Source: Escherichia coli (GTDB lineage Bacteria > Pseudomonadota > Gammaproteobacteria > Enterobacterales > Enterobacteriaceae). From it: a DNA stretch of 1,659 bases. Shown here piece by piece: positions 1,413 through 1,659 of the stretch. Location of the stretch: assembly GCF_003334355.1 (NCBI RefSeq), contig NZ_QOWP01000083.1; one strand, 5' to 3'. The notes below the pieces were generated by a model. It saw only the letters and a list, made by a program, of their open reading frames with translations. It was not told the DNA's origin and ran no database searches. Both the position numbers and the translations under genes were made by a program. Position 1 is the first letter of the stretch. Every line of letters begins with the position of its first letter.

Positions 1413-1659
1413 TCTGAGCAGCAGGCCACACTGAGCGCAGGGTATCTTCATGCCCGTACGAACGCTCCCGGCAGCGATAATCTGAACGGGATTAACGTGA
1501 AATACCGTTATGAGTTTACGGACACGCTGGGGCTGATTACGTCATTCAGTTATGCCAACGCTGAAGATGAGCAAAAAACGCATTACAGCGATACCCGCTG
1601 GCATGAAGATTCCGTGCGTAACCGCTGGTTCAGCGTGATGGCGGGGCCGTCTGTGCGCG
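1341..1659 (+). CDS. lom: Lom-like outer-membrane beta-barrel protein (Ail/Lom/OmpX/PagC family), N-terminal 106 aa, 3'-truncated by the window edge
   Basis: ATG at 1341 with a good RBS; the frame is open to the window end. My translation: [106 protein letters not shown]. From memory this is very close to lambda Lom (e.g. [73 protein letters not shown]). Placement directly downstream of J matches lambda. It is absent from the ORF track only because no stop codon falls inside the window. Confidence 0.92.

Follow-up and report, generated by a model that had tools for sequence, protein, structure and literature searches.

Two forms of a short sequence block in the loop 2 arm of an Ail/Lom-family protein gene from Escherichia coli prophages

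The J–lom locus and the identity of lom

The window (the whole 1,659-nt stretch of E. coli DNA that was analysed) contained on its + strand one long reading frame open from the start and a second ORF running from an ATG at 1341 off the end. The following features were recognized.

1–1273, + strand: 3′ end of gene J (lambda-type tail tip / host specificity), with its last 423 codons and the stop codon (1271–1273)
1292–1320, + strand: terminator-like hairpin between J and lom, 8-pair stem GGGCGCC..GGCGCCT and then a T run (pattern match in a consensus scan)
1330–1335, + strand: Shine-Dalgarno-like GAGAGG, 5 nt 5′ of the lom ATG (from reading of the sequence)
1341–1659, + strand: start of a lom-like gene for an outer-membrane beta-barrel of the Ail/Lom family; the window includes its first 106 codons
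1341–1412, + strand: predicted signal peptide of the lom product, cleavage after AWA (basic n-region, hydrophobic core and A-x-A motif, by inspection)

Compared with residues 738–1132 of lambda J, the J product of the window was 58% identical and had 28 inserted residues (about 100–127 of the query); it also matched PHROG 2148 and PHROG 31 (tail fibre / central tail fibre J). Judged from its sequence, it may have a receptor specificity other than the LamB of lambda. The whole window was 99.9% identical to a prophage of E. coli 23CRST009, and the J of that locus is labelled gpJ in RefSeq. The last ~130 residues of the window J were clearly more diverged from lambda J than the 58% average. Eleven clusters of J C-termini were seen adjoining the window-type lom family. 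No sigma-70-like promoter upstream of lom was found in a scan of 1150–1659.

The lom fragment matched Pfam PF06316 (Ail_Lom) with an E-value of 1.3e-66 over model positions 1–106 of 199, and its homologues carry PF06316 and PF13505. Over its 319 nt, its DNA showed 100% identity to the start of a RefSeq gene of E. coli 23CRST009, whose product WP_050867625.1 (199 aa) is annotated as “Ail/Lom family outer membrane beta-barrel protein”. This gene (L002 4341–4940) was used as a full-length surrogate for the window lom. The window lom is the same gene as this one and its relatives of 199 aa in lambdoid and Stx prophages, and the window simply ends at codon 106. The surrogate matched PHROG 108 (“Lom outer membrane protein”) over residues 1–199 of 199 (E 5.5e-110), and the gene order in the 23CRST009 locus was J, lom and a “phage tail protein” gene, so that its place after J also agreed with PHROG 108. 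Beyond the window end, the surrogate terminated in ..GVGYKF, with the C-terminal aromatic residue of the Ail/Lom family. As for the signal peptide, residues 2–17 were modelled by AlphaFold2 as a helix of low pLDDT ahead of strand 1 (residue 29), and the mature chains of OmpX and Ail aligned from Lom residues 26–29. A search of NCBIfam equivalogs gave only sub-threshold matches (Rck, 114 against 258 bits; OmpX, 98 against 176 bits) and no finer family name; with scores so far under the cut-offs, OmpX and Rck were rejected as identities of the product. Thus the window lom is a known, routinely annotated prophage Ail/Lom gene.

Several length variants of lom were encountered. Many variants of 185 aa (P0025, P0027 and P0040 among them) lacked 14 residues, and this deletion was bracketed exactly by two copies of a 10-nt direct repeat, the first of which lies in the window.

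1626–1635, + strand: first copy of the direct repeat TGGTTCAGCG; the second copy is 42 nt downstream, beyond the window (L002 4668–4677)

Since the deletion takes out the membrane part of strand 4, these common 185-aa variants may, to judge from sequence, be non-functional. P0040 was present on 70 contigs. Another allele (L122 1501–2124) carried an 8-residue tandem duplication in strand 5 (GMAYSRVS twice). In a MAG labelled Collinsella sp. (L166, contig JAIJJM010000250.1, ~3120–3184, minus strand), the J C-terminus was fused in frame to lom at ..SAWLVNNWY/EFTDALG.. by a deletion of the end of J, the spacer between the genes and ~57 codons at the start of lom; its Collinsella label probably reflects contamination of the bin by Escherichia prophage DNA.

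Comparison with lambda Lom and position of residues 72–81

The initial annotation had pointed to a short divergent segment of Lom, and its position and peptide were confirmed by translation.

1554–1583, + strand: flagged segment, codons 72–81, distal extracellular half of strand 3 (AlphaFold2 and HMMER)

The segment had been described as an island of difference in an N-terminal half otherwise near-identical to lambda Lom. Lambda Lom (NP_040601.1, 206 aa) belongs to the same Pfam family and PHROG and occupies the same place between J and the side-tail-fibre genes, but its loop 1 is longer and its loop 2 arm (ASKKSSTVM) is unrelated. Only 41 of the 106 N-terminal residues (39%) were identical, or 40 of 96 (42%) outside the segment, and BLASTP against lambda Lom (NC_001416 18965–19585) gave 33% identity with gaps over the whole fragment. 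Identities to lambda Lom by region were as follows.

Residues 1–24: 12 of 24
Residues 25–47: 4 of 23
Residues 48–71: 14 of 24
Residues 72–81 (flagged): 1 of 10
Residues 82–106: 10 of 25
Residues 156–199: 36 of 44 (82%)

The segment does differ from lambda, as had been noticed, but so does most of the N-terminal half, and lambda was rejected as a comparator for localized divergence because of this low identity. In a tblastn search of 50,697 phage records, lambda fell in the “<60%” group, and 158 records, mostly of Stx and other lambdoid phages, contained relatives of 80–95% identity. The sequence behind the comparison in the initial annotation was probably a non-lambda prophage “Lom”. The regional values also revealed that lom contains a mosaic joint: identity to lambda Lom was 82% over the last 44 residues (128 nt, 83.6% at the DNA level) and 39% over the first 106 (L001 1666–2286 compared with L002 4341–4940). 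A solved structure of lambda Lom was noticed as chain C of PDB entry 9wso (206 aa, two chains in the entry). No paper on it was found by full-text search with this code, and the entry was neither among the PDB entries containing J nor among the Foldseek PDB matches.

AlphaFold2 was run on the surrogate with a 63-sequence alignment reaching relatives of 28–50% identity. The model (mean pLDDT 93.7) was an eight-stranded barrel, of which the window itself covers strands 1–4.

Residues 29–40: strand 1
Residues 47–58: strand 2
Residues 59–62: periplasmic turn
Residues 63–81: strand 3
Residues 82–85: loop 2 hairpin tip
Residues 86–106: strand 4
Residues 111–135: strand 5
Residues 141–166: strand 6
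Residues 172–181: strand 7
Residues 188–198: strand 8

The best solved matches found by Foldseek were Ail of Yersinia pestis (3QRA, E 3e-15) and OmpX of E. coli (1QJ9, E 4.5e-14), with TM-scores of 0.82–0.85 normalized to target length. Like Lom, both are eight-stranded antiparallel barrels with four extracellular loops, the second and third of which rise above the membrane as a beta-sheet. The Lom type is only about 30% identical to them in sequence, and its hairpins of strands 3/4 and 5/6 are much longer. In the HMMER alignment the flagged stretch corresponded to the region of loop 2 in Ail and OmpX.

The segment had been expected at or near the second extracellular loop. It was indeed placed on the extracellular side, in the loop 2 region, but in the rising arm, which is a strand, and not at the loop tip. 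Structural mapping, the check proposed for this expectation, put residues 72–81 beyond the periplasmic turn, in the outer half of strand 3 of the AlphaFold2 model. Residues 73–81 would lie outside the membrane above Y71, because about ten residues of strand 3 span the membrane up to Y71 and the NAEDEQKTH that follows is fully polar. By the strand register of the model, loop 1 (residues 41–46) should also lie alongside the rising arm of loop 2, and so the two, which are both variable modules (see below), probably form one surface patch.

Two forms of the block

Fifty-seven full-length cluster representatives obtained from a search of 5.8 billion proteins were aligned. The flanks of the block (..LGLxTSFSYA upstream, and the downstream stretch) were almost invariant among them, and residues 73–81 took one of two forms: N-A-[E/K]-D-E-Q-K-T-H (form A, that of the window) or G-D-[K/R]-N-R-Q-[L/I]-T-R (form B). 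The net charge of NAEDEQKTH is −2 and that of GDKNRQLTR is +2.

Nucleotide alleles were taken from 160 IMG/VR loci (the best 80 matches to each of two queries) and the surrogate, a biased sample of related sequences. It yielded 131 unique indel-free alleles of 600 nt, 97 of form A and 34 of form B. The exact flagged peptide of the window was the commonest single peptide (43 of the 131 alleles). Codons 72–81 (30 nt) of the window and of the commonest form B version differed from each other at 18 nucleotides. Only the two forms were seen, alike in the 131 alleles, the 57 representatives and a scan of species-dereplicated genomes.

About 1550–1582, + strand: dimorphic mosaic block of 27–33 nt (gene nt 210–242; form A in the window), delimited by linkage and closest-pair differences

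The edges of the block were sharp. In the closest pair of a form A and a form B allele (L123 and L084), 19 of 600 nt differed, and 15 of these lay inside gene nt 216–242 (hypergeometric P about 2e-18); among the closest A/B pairs generally, 15–16 of 19–23 differences were in this interval. Most common variants at nt 210–242 had an r2 of 0.78–1.0 with the cassette class, and the few sites there that also varied within form A had 0.31–0.64. The r2 fell to 0.14 at nt 243 and was at most 0.16 downstream (mostly below 0.05), with all four gametes at most sites. The variation consisted of two discrete haplotype classes, both common, on recombining backgrounds, with divergence and linkage peaking over a narrow interval. 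The claim of a localized divergence at this segment thus holds between E. coli prophage Lom alleles (15 of 19 differences in the block), and fails against lambda.

These data also bear on the possibility that there is no feature at all and that the segment is a product of a mistaken comparison with lambda Lom. The 42% identity to lambda Lom outside the segment fits such an error, as do the identity of the window allele with an annotated RefSeq gene and the high frequency of its peptide in the sample. For the comparison with lambda it stands. A sharply bounded, statistically extreme difference between common alleles at the same coordinates speaks against it beyond that comparison, and as an account of the segment we regard it as very improbable.

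The forms were found on more than one backbone. A signal-peptide/loop 1 module (AVILSAVVW..QTHTDMPG) occurred with both (26 A, 14 B), and in P0046 a second upstream module of 17 residues was paired with form B. The prophage Lom of form B (for example cluster P0034, with 24,859 member sequences, and the Lom of Stx phages and O157 prophages) resembles the window type in its 199 residues, its place after J, its near-identical cassette flanks and an overall identity of ~84%; form B alleles differ from the window in GDKNRQLTR for NAEDEQKTH and often also in their signal-peptide and loop 1 modules. Among 5,426 complete E. coli genomes, 2,065 contained a 60-mer of form A, at 2,622 places, and 3,229 contained one of form B, at 7,229 places. 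By copy number, form A thus made up about 27% and form B 73%, and both forms sometimes occurred in one genome.

A pattern made from the conserved flanks was searched for in 100,044 species-dereplicated genomes and gave only four loci, from E. coli, from E. albertii and from two MAGs. Among them there was neither a third form nor an obvious donor in another species. All four were form A or B, indicating that lom here is an Escherichia prophage gene with a two-state cassette and not a hypervariable loop. As to local sources, no second copy of the form A 27-mer with up to 3 mismatches was found on either strand of 7.7 kb of the locus, and frame-shifted translations of form B DNA, inspected by eye, contained no form A-like peptide. 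Motifs like form B were present in relatives of 70–73% overall identity (P0088, GDKDRQFIH; P0114, GGKDRQMTY), and these sequences suggest that form B may be the older state, or that lineages with form B-like motifs could act as donors.

A strict tie between the cassette form and the receptor-binding type of J was rejected: the J type of the window was accompanied by form A in 106 cases and by form B in 22. Form B alone was found with two further J types, at just 11 and 3 loci of the biased sample. No description of the cassette dimorphism was found in the literature searched; loop modules that differ between alleles are well known in Ail-family proteins, as is mosaicism in lambdoid genes.

Selection tests and interpretation

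In the initial annotation the segment had been said to fit diversifying selection on an exposed loop, set against conserved strands. Residues 72–81 did rank first of the 166 ten-residue windows of the mature protein in amino-acid diversity. Mean amino-acid diversity among 115 unique proteins was distributed by region as follows.

Loop 1: 0.245
Loop 2 rising arm: 0.354
Loop 2 tip: 0.022
Loop 2 descending arm: 0.016
Loop 3: 0.036
Loop 4: 0.010
Transmembrane strands: 0.075

The picture of variable exposed loops and conserved strands was not borne out: the segment is itself a strand, and most exposed regions had values of 0.010–0.036 as against 0.075 for the transmembrane strands. Exposure alone does not account for the variability, and the barrel wall varies more than most of the exposed surface does. 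Residues 82–96, 121–156 and 182–188 (the tip and descending arm of loop 2, loop 3 and loop 4) were less variable than the membrane strands, which is unusual for a surface protein. There are hints of a conserved binding surface at the tip and descending arm of loop 2 and at loops 3 and 4.

Selection was assessed by counting methods only (Nei-Gojobori and a McDonald-Kreitman style table). Between the forms, pS and pN by Nei-Gojobori were 0.965 and 0.469 in the cassette, 0.176 and 0.037 in the left flank, and 0.179 and 0.008 in the right flank. Within form A, the cassette had a pN of 0.038 and a pS of 0.368 (pN/pS about 0.1), and the identical flagged peptide was encoded by two major haplotypes three synonymous sites apart. 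The McDonald-Kreitman style table (fixed N6:S2, polymorphic N15:S15) was not significant (P = 0.26). The within-form N:S in the block, 15:15, was about twice that in the rest of the gene, 173:362 (P = 0.07).

Ongoing diversifying selection by point substitution, acting on an exposed epitope or a ligand-binding loop, would fit the extracellular position of the segment in the AlphaFold2 model, its first rank in diversity and the raised N:S within forms; the loops of Ail-family proteins are their most variable parts and are responsible for binding (PMC3417512). It would not readily explain why there are two haplotype classes and no spectrum. Synonymous sites are saturated between the classes, with pN below pS, so there has been no recent burst of amino-acid change. 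The low pN/pS within form A, the outcome of the McDonald-Kreitman style table and the extreme conservation of the adjoining exposed tip and descending arm of loop 2 and of loops 3 and 4 also stand against it. By these counting methods the proposal was not upheld, and we think it quite unlikely.

The reading that we favour, with moderate confidence, is that lom carries an old or foreign two-form block that is shuffled by recombination and has probably been kept for its effect on surface interactions, that is, a balanced or mosaic dimorphism and not a continuing diversification. The saturated synonymous divergence in a 30-nt island, the two conserved classes and the free recombination around them argue for an old or imported dimorphism. 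The steps would be these. Forms A and B would be of old or foreign origin relative to each other. Lambdoid prophages resident in the same cell would recombine homologously in the near-identical flanks and thereby move the forms onto different lom backbones. Both forms would probably be retained because they alter what the loop 1 / loop 2 face binds, or what recognizes that face.

By analogy, the partners of this face could be host ligands, or incoming phages in view of the reported anti-lambda activity of Lom. In Ail, loops 2 and 3 form a positively charged heparin-binding site (PMC3417512). Plasmid-expressed lambda Lom gave strong protection against lambda-vir and none against T7, and its authors considered superinfection exclusion possible (PMC11888456); the result belongs to lambda Lom, which is only about 39% identical to the window type in the N-terminal half. 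A Lom orthologue of an Stx phage was expressed in lysogens and during induction (PMC3342100). Nothing specific on Lom, LamB and superinfection exclusion together was found in the literature searched. Since the cassette form is not tied to the receptor-binding type of J, a J-specific role in exclusion is without support.

A neutral mosaic patch could leave much the same trace. On this account a short gene-conversion tract (~30 nt) came from a diverged Lom lineage, and both versions hitch-hiked on successful prophages while the patch itself was under no selection. Lambdoid phage genes are mosaic, lom has a mosaic joint of its own, the form B-like motifs in relatives of 70–73% identity make a donor lineage plausible, the selection tests were not significant, and gene conversion from a diverged relative would give the same pattern. 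Yet the tract, which is very short, keeps exactly to the reading frame, its lower edge falls at the predicted boundary of membrane and extracellular space, both forms are frequent on several backbones, and each peptide has been kept through synonymous change. We therefore hold a purely neutral origin to be possible, though doubtful.

A more specific version of selective retention would make the ~30-nt block an ancient polymorphism under balancing selection, in which the charge inversion on one face of the exposed hairpin, beside the likewise modular loop 1, sets the specificity of a surface interaction (exclusion of particular incoming lambdoid phages, for example, or binding of a host polyanion or ligand) and E. 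coli strains gain from prophages of both forms. We consider that this full version is unlikely.

The finding is largely ordinary, in that the flagged peptide is one of two common versions of an annotated prophage protein. The “Lom” of E. coli prophages is mostly not the Lom of lambda, the N-terminal half being only ~40% identical. Variation in Lom is concentrated in exchangeable modules, namely loop 1 and one arm of loop 2, and is not spread over the exposed loops. Should Lom proteins have a role in adhesion or in excluding phages, their common function would be sought first in the conserved loops, with the charge-flipping cassette as the candidate for specificity.
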